From a virus (taxonomy: Duplodnaviria > Heunggongvirae > Uroviricota > Caudoviricetes): 37,860 bases of DNA. The stretch lies in IMG/VR virus record IMGVR_UViG_2541047762_000007; one strand, 5' to 3'. This document shows, piece by piece, positions 1-33,654 of this stretch; positions within the stretch are counted from its first letter, which is position 1; each line of letters starts with the position of its first letter. The position numbers and the translations under genes were made by a program. Below the pieces are notes generated by a model that was given only the letters and a program-made list of their open reading frames with translations, did not search any database and was not told where the DNA came from.

Positions 1-933
1 TTATGCCGCCAGCACGCGGTTGCGTCCATCATTTTTCGCCCGATACAAAGCATCATCAACGCGTTTAAACAGTTCATCGATGCTTTCATTTCCTTCGTGA
101 TGCGCCACACCAATGCTGACGGTAAAGCGTGGTAAGCCCGAAATACTCACTTTTGCCACGCTTACGCGGATAGTTTCAGCCAGCGAAAGCGCGGTATCCA
201 GTGGGGTTCTTGGTAGCAATAAGACAAACTCTTCGCCTCCCCAACGAAACACCAAATCGCCTTTGCGAGCGCAACTTTCGAGGGTGCGGGCGAGGGCGCA
301 TAACACCTCATCACCTTTAGAATGCCCATAGAGATCGTTAATGTGTTTAAAACGATCGGTGTCGATGAGCAATAAGCTGTAATCCTGAGCGATGGCGAGG
401 TGCTGCATTTGGCCTGGCTCGGTAATGTGGTAAAACTGTCGCCGATTCAGTAATCCGGTCATCGCGTCATGGTGGGCAGCATGTTCCAGCTGCTCCTCCA
501 GCCGTTTTTGCTCAGTAATATCATGCACAATACATAACATGAGCTTGTCGCCATAAATTTCAATCGGCCCAGCATAGGTCTGCACATGACGAGTCGAACC
601 ATCCGCCAGTTTATGAACAAAATTCAAAGGCTTATGGCCACCGGGTAAATGCGAAATTTCATGCATGATAGGCATGACGCGTCGCCCGAGCATATTTATT
701 TCCCAGGTATGTTTCTGGCACATCGTTTCATGGTTATAGCCATAGAAATTGAGCGCGGCGAGGTTAGCATCGACGATTTGGCCATCTCGTGAGGGGTCAA
801 TCAACAACATTGGTGCAGAGTTAGTCAGAAAAAAGCGCGCATAAAAACCTTGTTTTTTGCGCTGATAATTTGCCGAGCGACTGGCTTTTAAACCCAGCGT
901 TGCCGGTGCTTCGATACCTTCGAAAATAATCAC
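1..933 (-). CDS. PAS-GGDEF diguanylate cyclase (host gene; 5' end may be interrupted by prophage)
   Basis: Translation has the GGDEF active-site motif (RWGGEEF) and a PAS-like N-terminal region. Stop codon at 1..3. First codon is GTG at 931..933, and the frame stays open upstream to 982 with no ATG. Confidence 0.85.
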   Translation of the reverse strand: MIIFEGIEAPATLGLKASRSANYQRKKQGFYARFFLTNSAPMLLIDPSRDGQIVDANLAALNFYGYNHETMCQKHTWEINMLGRRVMPIMHEISHLPGGHKPLNFVHKLADGSTRHVQTYAGPIEIYGDKLMLCIVHDITEQKRLEEQLEHAAHHDAMTGLLNRRQFYHITEPGQMQHLAIAQDYSLLLIDTDRFKHINDLYGHSKGDEVLCALARTLESCARKGDLVFRWGGEEFVLLLPRTPLDTALSLAETIRVSVAKVSISGLPRFTVSIGVAHHEGNESIDELFKRVDDALYRAKNDGRNRVLAA

Positions 934-1034: not shown

Positions 1035-1607
1035 TTACATTTCAGGTTGCGTTATGACAGTCCCAACAGGGTGGTAGCGGTAGATCGTTGACAGTCCAAT
1101 ATCATAGATAATTGCCAGCCGCTTTCTGTCATACCCTTTCTGGAGCAATCTTGCGATCTGCTCATGCTGCTCCTTCGTCAGTTTCGGGCGACGTCCTCCA
1201 ACTCTCCCTTGTGCTCGCGCAGCAGCCAGTCCTGCCAGCGTGCGCTCAACTATCAGTTCACGCTCCATTTCTGCCAGTGCACCCATCATATGAAAAAAGA
1301 ACCTTCCCATCGGAGTGCTGGTATCGATTGAATCCGTCAGACTGCGAAAATTGACACCTTTTGCGCGTAGCTCTTCTGTGAGAGCAATGAGGTGTTTCAT
1401 TCTTCTACCCAACCGATCCAGCTTCCAGACCACCAATGTATCCCCTCTTTTAAGGCACTTTAAAGCGCGTTTCAGGCCTGGTCGTTCCGACTTGGTTCCG
1501 CTCATTTTGTCCTCAAAAATCTGTTCACATCCTGCGCACATTAATGCATTGCGTTGCAAATCTGTGTTTTGGTCATTTGTTGACACACGTATGTAGCCAA
1601 TCAGCAT
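1035..1607 (-). CDS. gin: Gin/Pin/Hin-family serine DNA invertase
   Basis: Translation from the ATG at 1607 (MLIGYIRVSTNDQNTDLQRNAL...GRRPKLT...) closely matches my recollection of Mu Gin and e14 Pin. The ORF-track start at 1736 is probably an upstream artefact. Confidence 0.9.
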   Translation of the reverse strand: MLIGYIRVSTNDQNTDLQRNALMCAGCEQIFEDKMSGTKSERPGLKRALKCLKRGDTLVVWKLDRLGRRMKHLIALTEELRAKGVNFRSLTDSIDTSTPMGRFFFHMMGALAEMERELIVERTLAGLAAARAQGRVGGRRPKLTKEQHEQIARLLQKGYDRKRLAIIYDIGLSTIYRYHPVGTVITQPEM

Positions 1608-1673
1608 TAAAAATACTCCCTTTTGAGTGGTTAAAGTACTGAGATAATGTGGGGAGGATTTGAGAGATAAACG

Positions 1674-1889
1674 TTGGTTTAGGAGAAGGCTCGGCGCTAC
1701 CCGTTGGTGTGCCTGTTCCGTGGCCCACCGCCACACCGCCAGCAGGCTGGTTAAAGTGCGACGGGCGCGCCTTTACAAAAGAACAATATCCTGTTCTGGC
1801 CAGAGTCTACCCGACCCTCCGTCTTCCCGATTTACGCGGTGAGTTTATCCGTGGATGGGACGACGGGCGCAAAGTTGATACAGGACGTA
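1674..1889. repeat. Left inverted repeat of invertible tail-fibre segment (gix-like site at 1664..1687)
   Basis: About 216 bp here is the near-identical reverse complement of 3061..3279. Its outer end (gagataaacgTTGGTTTAGGAGAA) resembles the Gin/Hin crossover half-site consensus. Confidence 0.7.
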
Positions 1890-2191
1890 AGTTGCTGTCC
1901 GCACAAGGGGCAACGCTGTTAAGAACAGCAATGCTGGATTATTATAACCAGGACACTACGGGAACCTCGGGGATAGTCGGCATGGGATTCAACAATGAAG
2001 ATTCCATTACAGACCTTCGTGAGGGCAGCTTTAAAATGCCGGACGGGACAACATTCAGCAATCCTGCCATGGCAATGTCAGACAATGGTATGCAGGCTAC
2101 TATTCTGACCTCTATCAGAAGCGGGTATGCGAAGGGTATCACTGTCAGACCCCGTAGCATTGCACTTAATTACATTGTGAGGGCAGTTTAA
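1709..2191 (+). CDS. Alternative tail-fibre C-terminal cassette (Sv'-like), promoterless in current orientation
   Basis: The first ~60 aa are nearly identical to the region of the 2812..4398 fibre that begins ~150 aa from its C-terminus (PVPWPTATPPAGWL...LRLPDLRGEFIRGWD), then diverge. It lies inside the invertible segment on the opposite strand. Confidence 0.7.
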   Translation: MPVPWPTATPPAGWLKCDGRAFTKEQYPVLARVYPTLRLPDLRGEFIRGWDDGRKVDTGRKLLSAQGATLLRTAMLDYYNQDTTGTSGIVGMGFNNEDSITDLREGSFKMPDGTTFSNPAMAMSDNGMQATILTSIRSGYAKGITVRPRSIALNYIVRAV

Positions 2192-2805
2192 TGAGTAACA
2201 CTGCAGTTCTGGATGAAAACGGTATCGCCACTGTAGCGGGCGATATCACTGTATATCACTATGACGAGGAAACCCGGGAATACACCTCATCCTCTGTGGA
2301 GTATCTCGCCCTTGGGGTGGGTACTCCGGCACATTCGTGCGCCGATGCACCGCCGGAAGCAATTTCGGGTTACGTGGTTTGCCGGACTGCCACGCTGAAC
2401 GGGTGGGAGCATGTGCCTGATCACCGCGGCGAGACGGTATACAGCACGGAGAACGGTAACCCCGTTCTGATTACCCAACCGGGTGATTACCCGGCGGACA
2501 CCACCACAAAACAGCCAGCCACGCCATGGGATACCTGGAACGGTGAGGCGTGGGTAACCGATACTGAACGGCAGCGAGCCGCAGAACTGGAGGTTGCCAG
2601 ACAGCAACGCCAGCAACGGGTGAAACAGGCGATGGCGTCCGTCGATCTTATCAACCTCAAACTGCGTGCTGGTCGCAGTCTGAAACCAGAAGAAACGGCA
2701 AAACTGAACGCCGTGCTGGATTATATCGACGAGCTGAACGCACTGGATATCAGCAAGGCACCTGAAATCAGCTGGCCGGAAGCGCCACTGGCGCTTGCCG
2801 GCTGA
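2191..2805 (+). CDS. Tail fibre assembly protein (Tfa/U-like)
   Basis: Position directly after the alternative fibre cassette (TAATG overlap), ~200 aa, composition typical of lambda Tfa / Mu U chaperones. Confidence 0.75.
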   Translation: MSNTAVLDENGIATVAGDITVYHYDEETREYTSSSVEYLALGVGTPAHSCADAPPEAISGYVVCRTATLNGWEHVPDHRGETVYSTENGNPVLITQPGDYPADTTTKQPATPWDTWNGEAWVTDTERQRAAELEVARQQRQQRVKQAMASVDLINLKLRAGRSLKPEETAKLNAVLDYIDELNALDISKAPEISWPEAPLALAG

Positions 2806-2811
2806 ACGGTA

Positions 2812-4398
2812 TCACGCCGCCCTCACGATATAGTTAAATGCGATATTGCGGGGGCGAGCTGATACATAAGCCCACCAGTCATATCTTTGTGCACCTTTAG
2901 AGGATGCATCAAATATCCACTTTTTGCCATTTATGACCCCCAGTTGATTAGAGGTTAAAGCGTCACCAAATCCGTATTGTGTAGAGCCGAGCGAACTGAT
3001 ATCTCCGGTATTATTATCATCAAAACCGGATACGATAGTCCCTTCCTGAAATGAAAGTACCGTACGCCCGGTATCAACCTTGCGACCACCGTCCCATCCA
3101 CGGATAAACTCACCGCGCAAATCGGGAAGACGGAGGGTCGGGTAGACTCTGGCCAGAACAGGATATTGTTCTTTGGTGAACGTAGCTCCGTTGCACTGTA
3201 ACCAGCCTGCTGGCGGTGTGGCGGTGGGCCATGGAACCGGTACACCAACAGGCAATGCAGAGCCTTCCCCCAAACCAAGGTAATTGAGGACATCTTTTAT
3301 ACTGCCCTTAGCGATAATAGCGCGACCAATAGCTGTAAGGGTTGCCAGCGCTGCGCGGTCTGCTCCGGTAAAATAAGGCAACCGATCTGCTGCAGTGGCA
3401 AGTCCTGCCAGAGCAGTGAGCGTGGCATCTGCCGGTTGTTTTCCGTTTGCCAGATCGTATGCAGCCTTGACGGCCTTTGGTGTGGCGGCCAGCGTTTCAG
3501 ACGTGCTGTTGATGGCGCTGCTCAATTGTACGGTGCCTTTTGCCGTCAGCGAGGCAGCAGGCACTCCCGTTATCTGACTCCACGGGTGAGTGTGGCTGAC
3601 GGGCGCCTTGCCGGCTGCAAGGTCGTATGCAGCCTTGACGGCCTTTGGTGTGGCGGCCAGCGTTTCAGACGTGCTGTTGATGGCGCTGCTCAATTGTACG
3701 GTGCCTTTTGCCGTCAGCGAGGCAGCAGGCACTCCCGTTATCTGACTCCACGGGTGAGTGTGGCTGACGGGCGCCTTGCCGGCTGCAAGGTCGTATGCAG
3801 CCTTGACGGCCTTTGGTGTGGCGGCCAGCGTTTCAGACGTGCTGTTGATGGCACTGCTCAGTTGTACGATCCCTTTACGGGTCGTTGTTGCATCCTGGGC
3901 TGTGTATTTTCCCCGGGCCAGATCATACGCGATTTTCACAGCCTTCGGCGTGGCAGCCTCAGTTTCTGATTGACTGTCCGTGGCACTGCTCAGCTGTACG
4001 GTGCCTTTTGCCGTCAGCGAGGCAGCAGGCACTCCCGTTATCTGACTCCACGGGTGAGTGTGACTGACGGGTGCCTTGCCGGCTGCAAGGTCGTATGCAG
4101 CCTTGACGGCTTTTGGTGTGGCGGCCAGCGTTTCAGAGGTGCTGTTGGTGGCACTGCTCAGTTGGGTGAACCCCTTAGCTGTCAGTGTCGCGTCCGGGTG
4201 GTTACGGGAACGTACGTGTTCAGCCAGTGACTGTGCGGCTTCCTCCGTTTTTTTCTTCAGCCATTTCGTCCTGTTTGCCAGTTGCCGGGGGGCTCGATTT
4301 GATATCCCGTCTGCACCACCCAGAACCGGATCTGATGTCTCCAGTTGATAGATATTTTCTTCCCACTTTTCTGTTTCATTCAGGTTTCCCATAATCAA
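2812..4398 (-). CDS. Tail fibre protein with internal tandem repeats
   Basis: 528-aa ORF with repeated fibre motifs (TAKGTVQLSSAxxSTSETLAATPKAVKAAYDLA, SHTHPW). C-terminal part lies inside the invertible segment. Position matches Mu S. Confidence 0.9.
   Translation of the reverse strand: MIMGNLNETEKWEENIYQLETSDPVLGGADGISNRAPRQLANRTKWLKKKTEEAAQSLAEHVRSRNHPDATLTAKGFTQLSSATNSTSETLAATPKAVKAAYDLAAGKAPVSHTHPWSQITGVPAASLTAKGTVQLSSATDSQSETEAATPKAVKIAYDLARGKYTAQDATTTRKGIVQLSSAINSTSETLAATPKAVKAAYDLAAGKAPVSHTHPWSQITGVPAASLTAKGTVQLSSAINSTSETLAATPKAVKAAYDLAAGKAPVSHTHPWSQITGVPAASLTAKGTVQLSSAINSTSETLAATPKAVKAAYDLANGKQPADATLTALAGLATAADRLPYFTGADRAALATLTAIGRAIIAKGSIKDVLNYLGLGEGSALPVGVPVPWPTATPPAGWLQCNGATFTKEQYPVLARVYPTLRLPDLRGEFIRGWDGGRKVDTGRTVLSFQEGTIVSGFDDNNTGDISSLGSTQYGFGDALTSNQLGVINGKKWIFDASSKGAQRYDWWAYVSARPRNIAFNYIVRAA
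3061..3290. repeat. Right inverted repeat of invertible tail-fibre segment (gix-like site at 3265..3290)
   Basis: Reverse complement matches 1674..1889. TTCCCCCAAACCAAGG at 3265..3280 is the inverted partner of the left site. Confidence 0.7.
3440..4200. repeat. 168-bp (56-aa) tandem repeats within tail fibre gene
   Basis: Three near-identical units are in register at ~3455, 3623 and 3791, followed by two more diverged units. The plus-strand shadow ORF 3436..3969 shows the same period. Confidence 0.85.
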
Positions 4399-29789: not shown

Positions 29790-30704
29790 ATGGGACGCAC
29801 CAAATCACCCGTTAACACTGAACTGAATGTTGAGGTTCCGCTGTCAGATAACATCAATGTCAATTTGAACGCTATGACACAGCATCGCATGGAAATTATG
29901 CAGCAGTTTGGTGATGGACTGCCTTATGAACGTGATCGCATTGTTCACGAAGCACGTTTTTATATGGCGCAGAGTGCTGAATCTATGCTGGAAGCAGGTA
30001 AGCGGCTGATCATCTTAAAAGAAAATGAGCCACACGGTGATTTTACAAACATTTTAGAAAATGAACTCGGACTTGCACCACAAGTTGCTCGCCGCATGAT
30101 GCAAGCCAGTATGAAGTTTTTGGGAGAAGGTGATGAGCCAACAAAACGCTCAACGTTGAGCGTTTTGGGGAAAGCCAAACTGTACGACCTGATGGTTCTG
30201 GATAATGAAGAACTTGATGAATTGGCCGACGGCGGCACAGTTGCCGGCCTGACGCTTGACGACGTTGATCGCATGTCAGTACGTGAATTGCGTCAGGCCC
30301 TGCGCGAAGCGCGCGAAACCAACGCAGCACAACAGCGCGTACTCGCCGACAAAAATGAAAAAATAGATTCACTCTCCACCAGACTGGAGAAGAAATCCCG
30401 TATTCAGCCGCCTGAGCCTGATGAGGAGGTTAAGAAGCTGCGGGCGGAAGTAACAGCATTAGCGGTTGAGGCGGAATCTGCTATCGCCGTCCGACTGTCC
30501 AGCGCTTTTGAGACGCTGTGCGCATATTGTGCTGAAAACATGATTGATACCCCCAGAGACTTCATGGCAGGCCTGGTCTGTCAACTGGAAAGCACAGCGC
30601 GTAGCCTGCGCTCCACATTTGACCTGCCGGACGAGCCAACAGGCAATGCAGCGCCTTCATGGCTGACTGAGCCGACGCCACAGATTAACGGGCTGGAGGC
30701 ATAA
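29790..30704 (+). CDS. Early protein of unknown function
   Basis: 304-aa ORF coupled to the upstream gene and immediately preceding the transposase. Confidence 0.55.
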   Translation: MGRTKSPVNTELNVEVPLSDNINVNLNAMTQHRMEIMQQFGDGLPYERDRIVHEARFYMAQSAESMLEAGKRLIILKENEPHGDFTNILENELGLAPQVARRMMQASMKFLGEGDEPTKRSTLSVLGKAKLYDLMVLDNEELDELADGGTVAGLTLDDVDRMSVRELRQALREARETNAAQQRVLADKNEKIDSLSTRLEKKSRIQPPEPDEEVKKLRAEVTALAVEAESAIAVRLSSAFETLCAYCAENMIDTPRDFMAGLVCQLESTARSLRSTFDLPDEPTGNAAPSWLTEPTPQINGLEA

Positions 30705-30707
30705 CCA

Positions 30708-32477
30708 ATGAATGCTGCCCTGACTGAACGACTGGTTTATGTCGCCCGCGCGGCACGTGACGCGGGGCATGGTAAACGCGGTGCAATATACGACGCTGCC
30801 TGTGCTGAACTTGGCATGTCCCGCGCCACTCTGCTGCGCAGGCTGAAGGAGGTCTCTGTGACTGATAAACGCAAAAAACGCGCCGATGCCGGGCGCAGCG
30901 CCCTGACCCGCGACGAAGCCGCGCTGATATCTGCCACACTGCGTGAGGCCACCCGCAAGAACGGTAAGCGTCTCTATTCCATCGCGGATGCAGTGGAAAC
31001 CCTGCGGGCTAACGGCTTTATCTCCGCAGGCAGAACAGATGAAACCACCGGTGAGTTTTTCCCGTTGTCCGAAGATGCCATCAGCCGAGCCCTGCGTAAC
31101 TATGGCCTGCACCCGGAACAACTGGATGCCCCTGCACCACATACTGAAGTGGCCAGTCTGCATCCCAATCATGTCTGGCAGATTGATGCCTCGCTCTGCA
31201 CGCTTTACTACCTGAGTAATGGACACAAAGGACTGCAGGTGATGGACAGCGCGAAGTTCTACAAGAACAAGCCCGCTAACCTTGCCCGTATCGCCAGTGA
31301 CCGCGTGTGGAGTTACGAGATTACCGACCATGCCAGCGGCTGGATTTACGTTGAGTATGTGACGGGTGCGGAATCCGGTGAGAACCTGTGTTCTGTGCTT
31401 ATCAACGCCATGCAGGAGCGTGGCGGCGCAGACGTGCTGCACGGCGTGCCAAAAATACTCTATCTCGACCCCGGCTCGGCAAACACCGCGGGTATGACGA
31501 AAAACATGTGCCGCTCACTGGGCATTGACCTGATAGCGCACAAGCCGCATAACGCCCGCGCCACCGGACAGGTGGAAAAGGCGCGTGACATTATCGAACG
31601 CAAGCTGGAGCCGGGTCTGAAGTTCCGGCCGGTTCACAGTCTGGAAGAACTCAACGCGCTGGCCGCGAAATGGCGCAGCCACTTTAACGCCACGGCTGTT
31701 CACAGCCGCCACGGTAAAACCCGCACGGATATCTGGCTGAAGATTACTACTGAGCAGCTGAAAAAAGCGCCTTCCGTTGAGGTATGTCGTGAACTGGCTG
31801 TGGCGGCACCAGAACTCCGCAAAGTCACGCCAAAACTTCGTGTCTCGTTCCGGGGCACTGAATTTGACGTATCAACGGTACCGGGCGTACTGGTCGGTGA
31901 AAAACTGATGATTACCCGTAACCCGTGGCGCAGCGATGTGGCACAGGTGGTTCTGACCGGTGAGGACGGCCACGAGACGTTCTTCCTGGTCGAAGAGGTC
32001 AGAAAGAACGAGTTTGGCTTTGCTGAAGGCGCGGCGGTATTTGGCGAAAGTTACAAAGCCCTGCCGGAAACACCGGCGCAGACGGCGGCAAAAGAAACTG
32101 AAGCGCTGGTCACCGGTACAGACAACGCCACAGATGCAGCTGCCGCACGCAAGGCGAAGGCGCTGCCGTTCGGCGGGCGGCTTGACCCGTATAAACATAT
32201 TGATGACGCCACACTTCCGGCCTATATGCCGAAGCGCGGTCAGGCCTCTGACGTACGCGGGCCGCGCACTGAACAACGTCCCATGACTCATGTGGAGGCC
32301 GCGAAAGCCCTGCGCGATAAGTTCAGCGCCGACGGCCTTACCTGGACGCCGGAACATTACCGCCAGTTAACGGCACAGTACCCGGACGGCGTACCGGAAG
32401 CCGCACTGGATGAAGTCATGGCCACGCTGACCACGCCGGCACGCAGCAGTGTTATCAGCATTGTTAACGGCAACTGA
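30708..32477 (+). CDS. DDE transposase (Mu A-like)
   Basis: 589 aa with N-terminal HTH-like region and an integrase-type catalytic core (HVWQIDAS, LYLDPGSANTA, ATGQVEKA); followed by a MuB-like ATPase. Confidence 0.8.
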   Translation: MNAALTERLVYVARAARDAGHGKRGAIYDAACAELGMSRATLLRRLKEVSVTDKRKKRADAGRSALTRDEAALISATLREATRKNGKRLYSIADAVETLRANGFISAGRTDETTGEFFPLSEDAISRALRNYGLHPEQLDAPAPHTEVASLHPNHVWQIDASLCTLYYLSNGHKGLQVMDSAKFYKNKPANLARIASDRVWSYEITDHASGWIYVEYVTGAESGENLCSVLINAMQERGGADVLHGVPKILYLDPGSANTAGMTKNMCRSLGIDLIAHKPHNARATGQVEKARDIIERKLEPGLKFRPVHSLEELNALAAKWRSHFNATAVHSRHGKTRTDIWLKITTEQLKKAPSVEVCRELAVAAPELRKVTPKLRVSFRGTEFDVSTVPGVLVGEKLMITRNPWRSDVAQVVLTGEDGHETFFLVEEVRKNEFGFAEGAAVFGESYKALPETPAQTAAKETEALVTGTDNATDAAAARKAKALPFGGRLDPYKHIDDATLPAYMPKRGQASDVRGPRTEQRPMTHVEAAKALRDKFSADGLTWTPEHYRQLTAQYPDGVPEAALDEVMATLTTPARSSVISIVNGN

Positions 32478-32487
32478 GGAGGAAAAC

Positions 32488-33654
32488 ATGCTGGTACTGA
32501 AGCAGCAACTGAAAGAGGCCCGTATCTCACAGGCGGTGGTGGCGAGAGCTGTCGATGTTTCTGAGGCCACGCTGGCCCAGATTGTGAATCATAACGCGTG
32601 GCCCCGCACCCGCCCCGGAGAAGTGCGCCGGCGTCTTGCGTCCTGGCTGGAAAGTCAGGGGATTGATACAACGAAGAGTTTTGATGCTGTACAGGTCGCG
32701 GCCACGCCCCGTACAGCGGGTACCACAGACAAAACGAGCCTCAGTGAGGAAGAGAATATGTTACTCAAAAAACAGGTGTTATTTCCAGCAACCAAAAAAG
32801 CGTTTGGTCTTTTCCGTGACCCGTTCGCCGATGAAGCCATGCAGGGTTCTGATGATGTGTTCACCACCCCGGACATCCGCTATGTGCGTGAGGCGCTGTA
32901 CCAGACAGCCCGTCATGGTGGATTTATGGCCGTCATCGGTGAGTCCGGTGCGGGCAAATCCACGCTGCGCCGCGACCTGACTGAACGTATCAACCGCGAG
33001 AATGCGCCGGTAATTGTTATCGAGCCATACGTCATCGCCATGGAAGACAACGATGTGAAAGGAAAAACCCTGAAGGCTGCAGCGATTGCCGAAGCCATTA
33101 TCAGTACCATCGCACCACTGGAAAGCATCAGACGCAGTCAGGACGCCCGCTTTCGCCAGTTGCATCGCGTCCTGAAAGACAGCAGCCAGGCGGGGTTCAG
33201 CCACGTTCTGGTGATTGAGGAGGCCCACAGTCTGCCCGTTCCGACACTGAAACACCTCAAACGCTTTTTTGAGCTGGAGTCCGGTTTCAAAAAGCTGCTG
33301 TCCATTGTGCTGATTGGCCAGCCGGAACTGGCGACAAAACTGTCTGAACGCAATATGGAAGTCCGTGAAGTCGTTCAGCGCTGTGAGGTGGTCGAACTTC
33401 TGCCTCTGGACAATAACCTTGAAGAATTTCTGACGTTCAAACTGCAACGGGCCGGTAAACAACTGACGGACATTATGGACGCCAGCGCAGTGGATGCCAT
33501 ACGTGCCCGCCTGAGCAATCCGGGAAGTCATCGTAAAAATATGGTCAGCCTGCTGTATCCGCTGGCCGTCAGTAACCTGGTAATAGCCGCCATGAATCTG
33601 GCCGCTGAAATCGGGGTTCCACAGGTCAACGCTGACGTTGTCAAAGGGGTTTAA
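32488..33654 (+). CDS. Transposition ATPase (Mu B-like AAA+)
   Basis: Walker A GESGAGKST, Walker B-like VLVIEEAH, N-terminal HTH-like region. Start taken at ATG 32488 after GAGGAGG. Confidence 0.8.
   Translation: MLVLKQQLKEARISQAVVARAVDVSEATLAQIVNHNAWPRTRPGEVRRRLASWLESQGIDTTKSFDAVQVAATPRTAGTTDKTSLSEEENMLLKKQVLFPATKKAFGLFRDPFADEAMQGSDDVFTTPDIRYVREALYQTARHGGFMAVIGESGAGKSTLRRDLTERINRENAPVIVIEPYVIAMEDNDVKGKTLKAAAIAEAIISTIAPLESIRRSQDARFRQLHRVLKDSSQAGFSHVLVIEEAHSLPVPTLKHLKRFFELESGFKKLLSIVLIGQPELATKLSERNMEVREVVQRCEVVELLPLDNNLEEFLTFKLQRAGKQLTDIMDASAVDAIRARLSNPGSHRKNMVSLLYPLAVSNLVIAAMNLAAEIGVPQVNADVVKGV

Follow-up and report, generated by a model that had tools for sequence, protein, structure and literature searches.

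Variable Pf2 repeat number and a conserved HxH linker cassette in the tail-fibre shaft of a Mu-like Escherichia coli prophage

Introduction

The shafts of phage tail fibres are commonly regarded as inert spacers. In the trimeric proteins T4 gp37, P2 gpV, and the R1/R2 pyocin fibre shaft, a His-x-His (HxH) motif forms an octahedral site in which six His residues hold Fe (His6; PMC6116203; PMC12609058). The Shaft domain of the R1/R2 pyocin fibre contains a buried Fe(II) site (His561/563 and His562/564), and for its HxH the suggested roles are those of a folding reference point and of balancing stiffness (PMC6116203). Sites of the gp37 type have also been predicted in fibres of Bas63 and of Burkholderia and Alteromonas phages. 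A literature search for HxH motifs in fibres returned needle- or spike-type cases only.

The Pf2 repeat (Pfam PF03406, Phage_fiber_2, "phage tail fibre repeat") occurs in lambda Stf, E. coli StfR, and EHEC prophage collagen-like fibres, in each case following an N-terminal anchor and preceding a distal domain. P2 gpH has two Pf2 units with a short linker between them; Mu gpS has a single unit (residues 111-150). The literature on Pf2 (PMC3368898, 2012; PMC8078820, 2021) gives neither a structure nor a function, and the literature search found neither a Pf2 structure nor the present HxH cassette described.

The fibre analysed here is encoded in a stretch of 37,860 nucleotides (IMG/VR record IMGVR_UViG_2541047762_000007), hereafter the window. 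Its repeats occupy the same place as those of the other Pf2 fibres and have the same core as P2 gpH and Mu gpS, but the units are more numerous and occur partly in a long form with an HxH cassette that P2 gpH and Mu gpS lack.

The tail-fibre gene and its prophage

Portal_Mu, rve transposase, and AAA ATPase genes in the window, together with relatives at different chromosomal sites, identify the element by its gene content and placement as a transposable, Mu-like E. coli prophage. Sheath and tape-measure genes are also present. The phage/host junction lies at approximately 956/957, adjoining a GGDEF/PAS gene, and close relatives were inserted at yebS, aroA, and a DUF2207 gene. The tail genes were 97.7% identical to those of phage PhiKM.

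The fibre gene and its parts outside the repeats are as follows:

2812..4392, minus strand: tail-fibre gene, 526 aa, ATG at 4392, stop codon at 2812-2814 (open reading frame, Pfam, PHROG, orthologues)
4195..4392, minus strand: N-terminal 66 aa (MGNLNETEKWEE...), presumed baseplate-attachment part, invariant among 26 orthologues
3282..3426, minus strand: conserved joint ATLTALAGLATAADRLPYFTG...DVLN, from the repeats to the crossover site, also in P2 gpH (translation, P2 gpH comparison)
2815..3259, minus strand: expressed C-terminal cassette, Collar plus a small distal domain ending NIAFNYIVRAA, without HxH (Pfam, PDB matches)

In the open-reading-frame list the frame extends to a TTG at 4398. 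The preliminary description of this DNA had placed the repeats in the shaft of a tail fibre, and both points were borne out. Tail_P2_I and Baseplate_J genes lie upstream, the N-terminal part being directly downstream of them; a Caudo_TAP assembly gene, a second collar cassette, and a serine invertase lie downstream (Pfam, PHROG). A Collar domain (PF07484, Phage Tail Collar domain) occupies residues 383-430, the PHROG matches of the fibre were tail-fibre families, and orthologues with 97% identity are annotated as phage tail protein. The repeats follow the N-terminal 66 aa and precede the collar/C-terminal domain. The N-terminus of Mu gp49 docks to the baseplate wedge (PMC11915804), and a baseplate-attachment role of the first 66 residues is presumed by analogy.

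The fibre matched PF03406 in five stretches with 312.1 bits against a cut-off of 22 (E = 2.9e-95). With a score above the gathering cut-off and tandem units of ~40 aa in a tail-fibre protein, it is an ordinary member of this known repeat family. The match to PF12789 (PTR, phage tail repeat like) reached 24.2 bits, below the cut-off of 27, and its best stretch, residues 205-221, was the HxH linker; many homologues bear a precomputed PF12789 label. The remaining parts of the fibre are shared with different phages: the joint ATLTALAGLATAADR..PYFTG and Pf2 cores with P2 gpH, one Pf2 core with Mu gpS, and the collar with T4 gp37 and with the short tail fibre of PDB entry 9cuy. Against the PDB, the C-terminal cassette matched 9cuy_c (E = 1.6e-14) and T4 gp37 (2xgf, E = 7e-13). 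On these alignments the protein has the composition of a typical mosaic enterobacterial tail fibre.

Anatomy of the repeat array

Cut at its repeat boundaries, the array comprises five tandem units at window positions 3427-4194 on the minus strand:

4027..4194, minus strand: unit A, long, 56 aa, with SHTHPW, HxH codons 4054-4062 (unit alignment)
3895..4026, minus strand: unit B, short, 44 aa, without HxH, the most diverged unit (unit alignment)
3727..3894, minus strand: unit C, long, 56 aa, with SHTHPW, HxH codons 3754-3762 (unit alignment)
3559..3726, minus strand: unit D, long, 56 aa, with SHTHPW, HxH codons 3586-3594 (unit alignment)
3427..3558, minus strand: unit E, terminal short, 44 aa, ending GKQPAD, without HxH (unit alignment)
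3455..3852, minus strand: recent duplication with a 230-bp exact copy (repeat comparison, Tandem Repeats Finder)

Tandem Repeats Finder reported a 168-bp period at 3448-3876 (2.6 copies, 97% matches, 0 indels, score 816). A direct-repeat search of the window found copies of a 282-nt repeat at 3449, 3617, and 3917, spaced 168 and 300 nt apart. The longest exact direct repeat was 230 bp (3623-3852 = 3455-3684), well above chance. This period and exact repeat agree with the near-identical 168-bp tandem repeats of the preliminary description, which had placed the array correctly and whose quoted peptide, PVSHTHPWSQITGVPAASLTAKGTVQLSSA, is found in the fibre translation. It had counted five units of 56 aa; that figure stands for the three near-identical long units (A, C, and D), while the other two are 44 aa long and have no HxH.

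Each Pf2 unit consists of a core of ~34 aa (KG-x-VQLSSA...AATPKAVKAAYDLA-GK) followed by one of two linkers: a short linker of 10 aa, giving the 44-aa unit, or a long linker of 22 aa, giving the 56-aa unit. The long linker adds the cassette AP-x-S-H-T-H-P-W-x-Q-I-T-G-V-P, so that a long unit is a short unit plus ~12 residues; in effect APxSHTHPWxQITGV stands in place of YTA. Both SHTHPWSQITGVP and APVSHTHPWSQITGVP were present in all three long units and absent from the two short units. SHTHPW was found at fibre residues 110-115, 210-215, and 266-271, with the paired His at 111/113, 211/213, and 267/269. The long units shared 87.5-92% nucleotide identity and 51 of 56 residues at the protein level. 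Over the core, unit B was 62-76% identical to the other units in nucleotides; in the PDB search it was the unit that aligned with residues 111-150 of Mu gpS.

An antisense open reading frame at 3436-3969 (plus strand, 177 aa) had marginal PHROG matches (E ~5e-4, function unassigned) and was taken as a by-product of the Ala-rich repeat.

Natural variation in unit number

The fibre gene matched 800 of 5,426 complete E. coli genomes, at a median of five places per genome because the repeat is widespread in fibre genes; near-full-length matches were found in 123 genomes. Layouts were coded by unit type as L (long), S (short), and s (terminal short). Orthologues with ~97% identity on complete E. 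coli chromosomes spanned 1581, 1413 (-168), and 1281 (-300) bp, all of them intact open reading frames, and their layouts were LSLLs (526 aa, five units), LSLs (470 aa, four units), and LLs (426 aa, three units). Fibres in the protein database that share both the N-terminus (MGNLNETEKWEE) and the C-terminal cassettes contained 5-11 units, and several of the variant unit counts came from contigs larger than 4.9 Mb. Altogether, the database fibres and three loci formed 19 orders of long and short units, with 3-11 units and 2-8 HxH inserts, always in frame. Every one of the 19 layouts began with L and ended with Ls. Unit lengths in close relatives were only 44 aa (n = 288) and 56 aa (n = 530).

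Copy-number polymorphism is therefore real across strains, as the preliminary description had anticipated in proposing that such repeats allow it and that unit number be compared across related prophages. Among E. coli fibres with the same termini that comparison gave the full range of 3-11 units.

The same comparison bears on whether the five-unit array of the window might be an assembly artefact, a collapsed or expanded repeat whose true unit number differs. The 230-bp exact repeat with its 168-bp period exceeds many short reads, the closest complete genome (99.0% identical over the flanks) has one unit fewer, and an identical genome was not found in the complete-genome set. Against these points, the window reading frame is intact and in frame, and the same LSLLs layout at 526 aa was found on an independent E. 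coli chromosome (locus L003). Since many other unit numbers occur in chromosome-size contigs, five units are an ordinary allele, and an artefact at this locus is very improbable.

Chimeric units were found in loci L002 and L003, for example a B-type core with a long linker, and the five units of the window and those of L003 had been reached by different routes. These units point to in-register unequal recombination between near-identical units, a mechanism that we infer from the sequences, with the 230-bp exact duplication (3455..3852) as a likely substrate. Because neighbouring units are almost identical in DNA (230 bp exact), units would be gained, lost, and reshuffled in frame: unequal homologous recombination or replication slippage would add, remove, or reorder whole units, and natural alleles with 3-11 units and 2-8 HxH cassettes, that is, a polymorphism in fibre length, would be the outcome.

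A putative inversion switch at the fibre C-terminus

Beyond the shaft, the window contains inverted repeats of 229 nt (1671-1899 and 3053-3281, 86% identity) and the following features:

1671..1692, plus strand: left crossover-like site ACGTTGGTTTAGGAGAAGGCTC, outer edge of the 229-nt inverted repeat (inverted-repeat alignment, pattern scan)
3260..3281, minus strand: right crossover-like site ACCTTGGTTTGGGGGAAGGCTC, in the fibre gene at residues YLGLGEGS (inverted-repeat alignment, pattern scan)
1709..2191, plus strand: silent alternative C-terminal cassette, Collar, ending LNYIVRAV, without HxH (Pfam, translation)
2191..2805, plus strand: tail-fibre assembly protein (Caudo_TAP), convergent with the fibre gene, same orientation as the silent cassette (Pfam, PHROG)
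1035..1610, minus strand: serine DNA invertase (Resolvase plus HTH_7), phrog_125 E = 7e-95 (Pfam, PHROG)

The 22-nt crossover-like site had two matches in the window versus 0 expected by chance. As in Gin/Cin/Hin-type switches, a serine recombinase is adjacent, and the alternative cassettes lie between inverted crossover sites, of which one falls within the fibre gene. The silent cassette was 95% identical to the C-terminus of orthologue P0078, where it is fused to the same fibre, and LLLLs fibres measured 538 or 555 aa depending on the cassette. Since the shared shaft is followed by one cassette in some orthologues and by the other cassette in others, both orientations occur in nature. These two configurations in different genomes suggest that the fibre C-terminus is under a Gin-like inversion switch. 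The locus resembles the Mu G, P1 C, and e14 P segments (Gin/Cin/Pin) in its serine invertase, inverted repeats in the fibre gene, alternative cassettes, and assembly gene; unlike them, it has a single assembly gene, which runs in the direction of the silent cassette. The sequence of Mu gix was absent from the window. A third cassette is present in relatives and missing from the window.

The switch bears on a further reading of the repeats, in which Pf2 units are ligand-binding modules, for example making weak lectin-like contacts with O-antigen or capsule, and copy number tunes avidity rather than length. The repeats are exposed at the surface and have a high content of Ser, Thr, and Asn, and the family extends over many kinds of fibre, among them lambdoid side fibres and P1-like and P2-like fibres. 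However, the units are highly conserved across fibres with different C-terminal receptor-binding cassettes, showing the pattern of a structural shaft and not of a specificity determinant, and specificity switching is assigned to the invertible C-terminus. A ligand-binding role is thus judged highly unlikely.

Conservation of the HxH linker cassette

A core-linker-core fragment searched against 1.84 billion cluster representatives gave 2,439 matches at E < 1e-3. Linkers were surveyed in the best 150 of the 2,439 (representatives of 50%-identity clusters), in which Pf2 cores were located by HMM. Among these 150, HxH occurred in 0 of 114 linkers of 10 aa, in 59 of 61 linkers of 22 aa, and in 16 of 22 linkers of 19 aa (AN-x-S-H-S-H-xxx-D-L-P); both exceptions in the 22-aa class and those in the 19-aa class were unrelated sequences.

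Sites were also anchored independently of His, by the downstream pattern W.[QDNHE][IV]..[VI]P only. Of the 43 distinct sites anchored in this way on W..I..VP in the best 150 of the 2,439 matches, 42 had H-x-H at positions -4 to -2, and the proteins containing anchored sites had 301 HxH versus 23 expected from their His content. The residue between the paired His varied (T, S, N, K, I), as did the flanking residues; because of this variation the His pair is seen to be under constraint in two otherwise dissimilar linker types. Units B and E, like P2 gpH and Mu gpS, do without the cassette, so it is dispensable for the Pf2 fold. As judged from this survey, the HxH insert is a discrete, optional, and widely conserved linker cassette between the Pf2 cores of fibre shafts.

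The pair might also be conserved for reasons unrelated to metal. The cassette might be a metal-free structural spacer that adds ~12 residues or a hinge between Pf2 units, the His and Trp packing or hydrogen-bonding at the trimer axis or serving as a pH-sensitive joint. Its optional nature, the short linkers present in the same proteins, and the cassette-free P2 gpH and Mu gpS would fit such a spacer, as would the downstream W, I, and P, whose conservation is similar in strength to that of the His pair. What speaks for metal instead is that His-x-His spacing is kept in both the 22-aa HTHxW..I..VP and the 19-aa HSHxxxDLP linkers while neighbouring residues vary, and that the identical spacing makes His6 metal sites in solved trimeric fibres and spikes (PMC6116203). 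A metal-free spacer therefore appears rather unlikely, though it is the strongest of the alternatives, and the cassette probably binds metal, by analogy with those sites. Two observations weigh against a metal site: a proline directly follows the second His (H-T-H-P-W), which is atypical for the regular beta-strand context of the gp37 needle, and Pf2 fibres such as P2 gpH and Mu gpS function with no cassette.

Comparison with metal-binding fibres

The preliminary description had likened SHTHPW to metal-coordinating HxH motifs of fibre needles. The likeness to a metal motif was upheld in that both His are conserved in a recurrent cassette and HxH is an established His6 motif, and metal binding by this fibre would follow by analogy. 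The needle was the wrong address, because the motifs are proximal to the collar, in single-pass linkers: all of them are N-terminal to the Collar (residues 383-430), and residues 431-526 and the alternative cassette are without HxH.

The T4 gp37 needle (PDB 2XGF) and the fibre both repeat [S/A]-H-x-H along a trimeric fibre, which for the present protein is presumed, and their collars are homologous (E = 7e-13). In gp37, however, the HxH motifs are distal to the collar, in a needle where the chain turns back on itself (PMC12609058), whereas those of the fibre are proximal to it, in single-pass linkers between helical repeats, and the part after the collar is short and without HxH. The alignment to 2xgf covered only fibre residues 377-442 and 514-526 (the collar and the last 13 residues), and linker-only PDB searches gave no gp37 match. 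The fibre thus shares repeated HxH with gp37-type needles, but neither the position distal to the collar nor homology in the HxH region.

The R-pyocin fibre is more alike in that its HxH lies in the shaft, not the tip, of a P2/Mu-type contractile-tail fibre; sheath, Baseplate_J, and Tail_P2_I genes are present here. The pyocin fibre has one HxH site, compared with three in the window fibre and 2-8 in relatives, and its metal is proven, whereas that of the present fibre is proposed by analogy. No pyocin fibre chain was among the PDB matches at E up to 10, and no sequence similarity to the Shaft domain was detected. The closer functional analogue of the HxH shaft would accordingly be the iron site of the R-pyocin shaft and not the gp37 needle.

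PDB sequence and profile searches were run with the whole protein, a two-unit fragment, a 27-sequence profile of the HxH linker, and a 12-sequence profile of the core. No chain in these searches covered the HxH linker, and only Mu gpS residues 110-150 matched a Pf2 core. A likeness of the HxH linker to Bxb1 gp4 (9d93_La; SSHTHSIANVTGL, SAHDHVAADVTDL) was too weak (E = 0.13), and one to the T4 gp12 shaft repeats (E = 0.67) was lost with the core profile. An AlphaFold2 monomer of the full fibre, built with 26 orthologues, had a mean pLDDT of 32 and a pTM of 0.19 and was unusable as a model; a helix recurring over TPKAVKAAYDL in it is at most suggestive.

A model for the Pf2 shaft

Taken jointly, the array is on balance best explained as the Pf2 shaft of a trimeric fibre of a Mu-like prophage, its length varied by recombination and its HxH cassettes acting as putative metal sites. 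Three copies of each cassette would meet on the three-fold axis of the fibre trimer, and the six His of the three chains would coordinate one metal ion (Fe2+ or Zn2+). Each His6 site could then hold the chains in register and act as a stiffening clasp from one helical Pf2 unit to the next, the role put forward for HxH sites of the R-pyocin shaft and the T4 gp37 needle. The window fibre would hold three such sites and natural alleles 2-8. The resulting fibre-length polymorphism would be layered over the separate, invertase-driven switch of the C-terminal receptor-binding cassette.

A more specific form of this model is put forward tentatively, with somewhat less confidence than doubt. In it the insert S-H-x-H-x-W-x-x-I-x-x-V-P (12-15 residues), whose fold is absent from solved structures, would be a portable, self-contained metal clasp that can be placed between any two Pf2 units, so that recombination would determine how long the shaft is and how many His6 sites (2-8) it has, tuning stiffness and reach apart from receptor specificity.

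The modestly new element is the recognition of HxH as part of an optional shaft linker cassette; apart from that cassette, the finding is the expected biology of a mosaic enterobacterial tail fibre. The alleles form a natural series with the same anchor and the same tips, differing in units (3-11) and HxH cassettes (2-8), with which possible effects of fibre length and of putative metal clasps on adsorption through O-antigen or capsule could be examined. The Pf2 array is also a possible modular scaffold for engineered fibres.

The repeats are a likely site of short-read misassembly in general. They also break automatic annotation: intact alleles were found labelled as pseudogene fragments.

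Invertible switch of the fibre C-terminus

[quoted passage not shown]
1035-1610, minus strand: serine invertase
1671-1899 and 3053-3281: inverted repeats, 229 nt
1671-1692 (plus strand) and 3260-3281 (minus strand): crossover-like sites, 22 nt
1709-2191, plus strand: silent alternative Collar cassette
2191-2805, plus strand: tail-fibre assembly gene

In the other genomes compared, orthologous fibres were terminated by either the expressed or the silent cassette, depending on the genome; thus, both orientations of the switch exist.

The silent cassette and the sole assembly gene (2191-2805) had the same orientation. The assembly gene was convergent with the expressed fibre gene (2812-4392), and therefore no assembly gene lies downstream of the fibre in the present orientation. 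This arrangement was also found in all three relatives compared from E. coli chromosomes (loci L001, L002, and L003).

In each of these loci, a third C-terminal cassette of about 430 bp, labelled "phage tail protein," separated the alternative cassette from the invertase:
L001, 5057-5485: third cassette
L002, 4925-5353: third cassette
L003, 5225-5659: third cassette

The window did not contain this third cassette, suggesting either that it was deleted between crossover sites or that the relatives have a multi-inversion system.

Prophage junction and gene layout

The prophage/host junction was placed at approximately 956/957 of the window, adjoining one gene:
1-933, minus strand: PAS-GGDEF diguanylate cyclase gene

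Insertion neighbours of the relatives were yebS, aroA, or a DUF2207 gene, a variety consistent with transposition-type integration. Late genes on the minus strand were divergent from the transposase/ATPase genes (plus strand, 29790-33654), an orientation that phage Mu itself does not have.

Repeat array and HxH linker

The array of repeat units in the fibre shaft contained an open reading frame on the opposite strand:
3436-3969, plus strand: antisense ORF, 177 aa

Its PHROG matches were marginal only (E about 5e-4) and fell in families of unknown function; most likely, the Ala-rich repeat produces this ORF incidentally. Homology-based annotation appears to be confused by repeat-number alleles: the intact fibre ORFs of L001 (2501-3913, 470 aa) and L002 (2501-3781, 426 aa) were cut into "incomplete" pseudogene fragments by RefSeq.

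The HxH linker cassette, the SHTHPW-containing insert of the long (56-aa) repeat units, was resembled by SSHTHSIANVTGL and SAHDHVAADVTDL in chain La of PDB 9d93 (mycobacteriophage Bxb1 gp4, tail collar fibre), with a profile match between gp4 and the linker that was not significant (E = 0.13). If these residues are resolved in 9d93, the look of the cassette could be shown there. Among the best 150 of 2,439 matches in a search of cluster representatives (P0121-P0270), linkers of some relatives carried two tandem HxH modules (e.g., HPYAATSHAHVAADITDFSHSHVAADLPSASTSV), and other relatives had one HxH module followed by an insert of about 30 aa (ANASHTHAIADLTDF...VPADLP). These linkers suggest that the HxH module is itself a multipliable unit.
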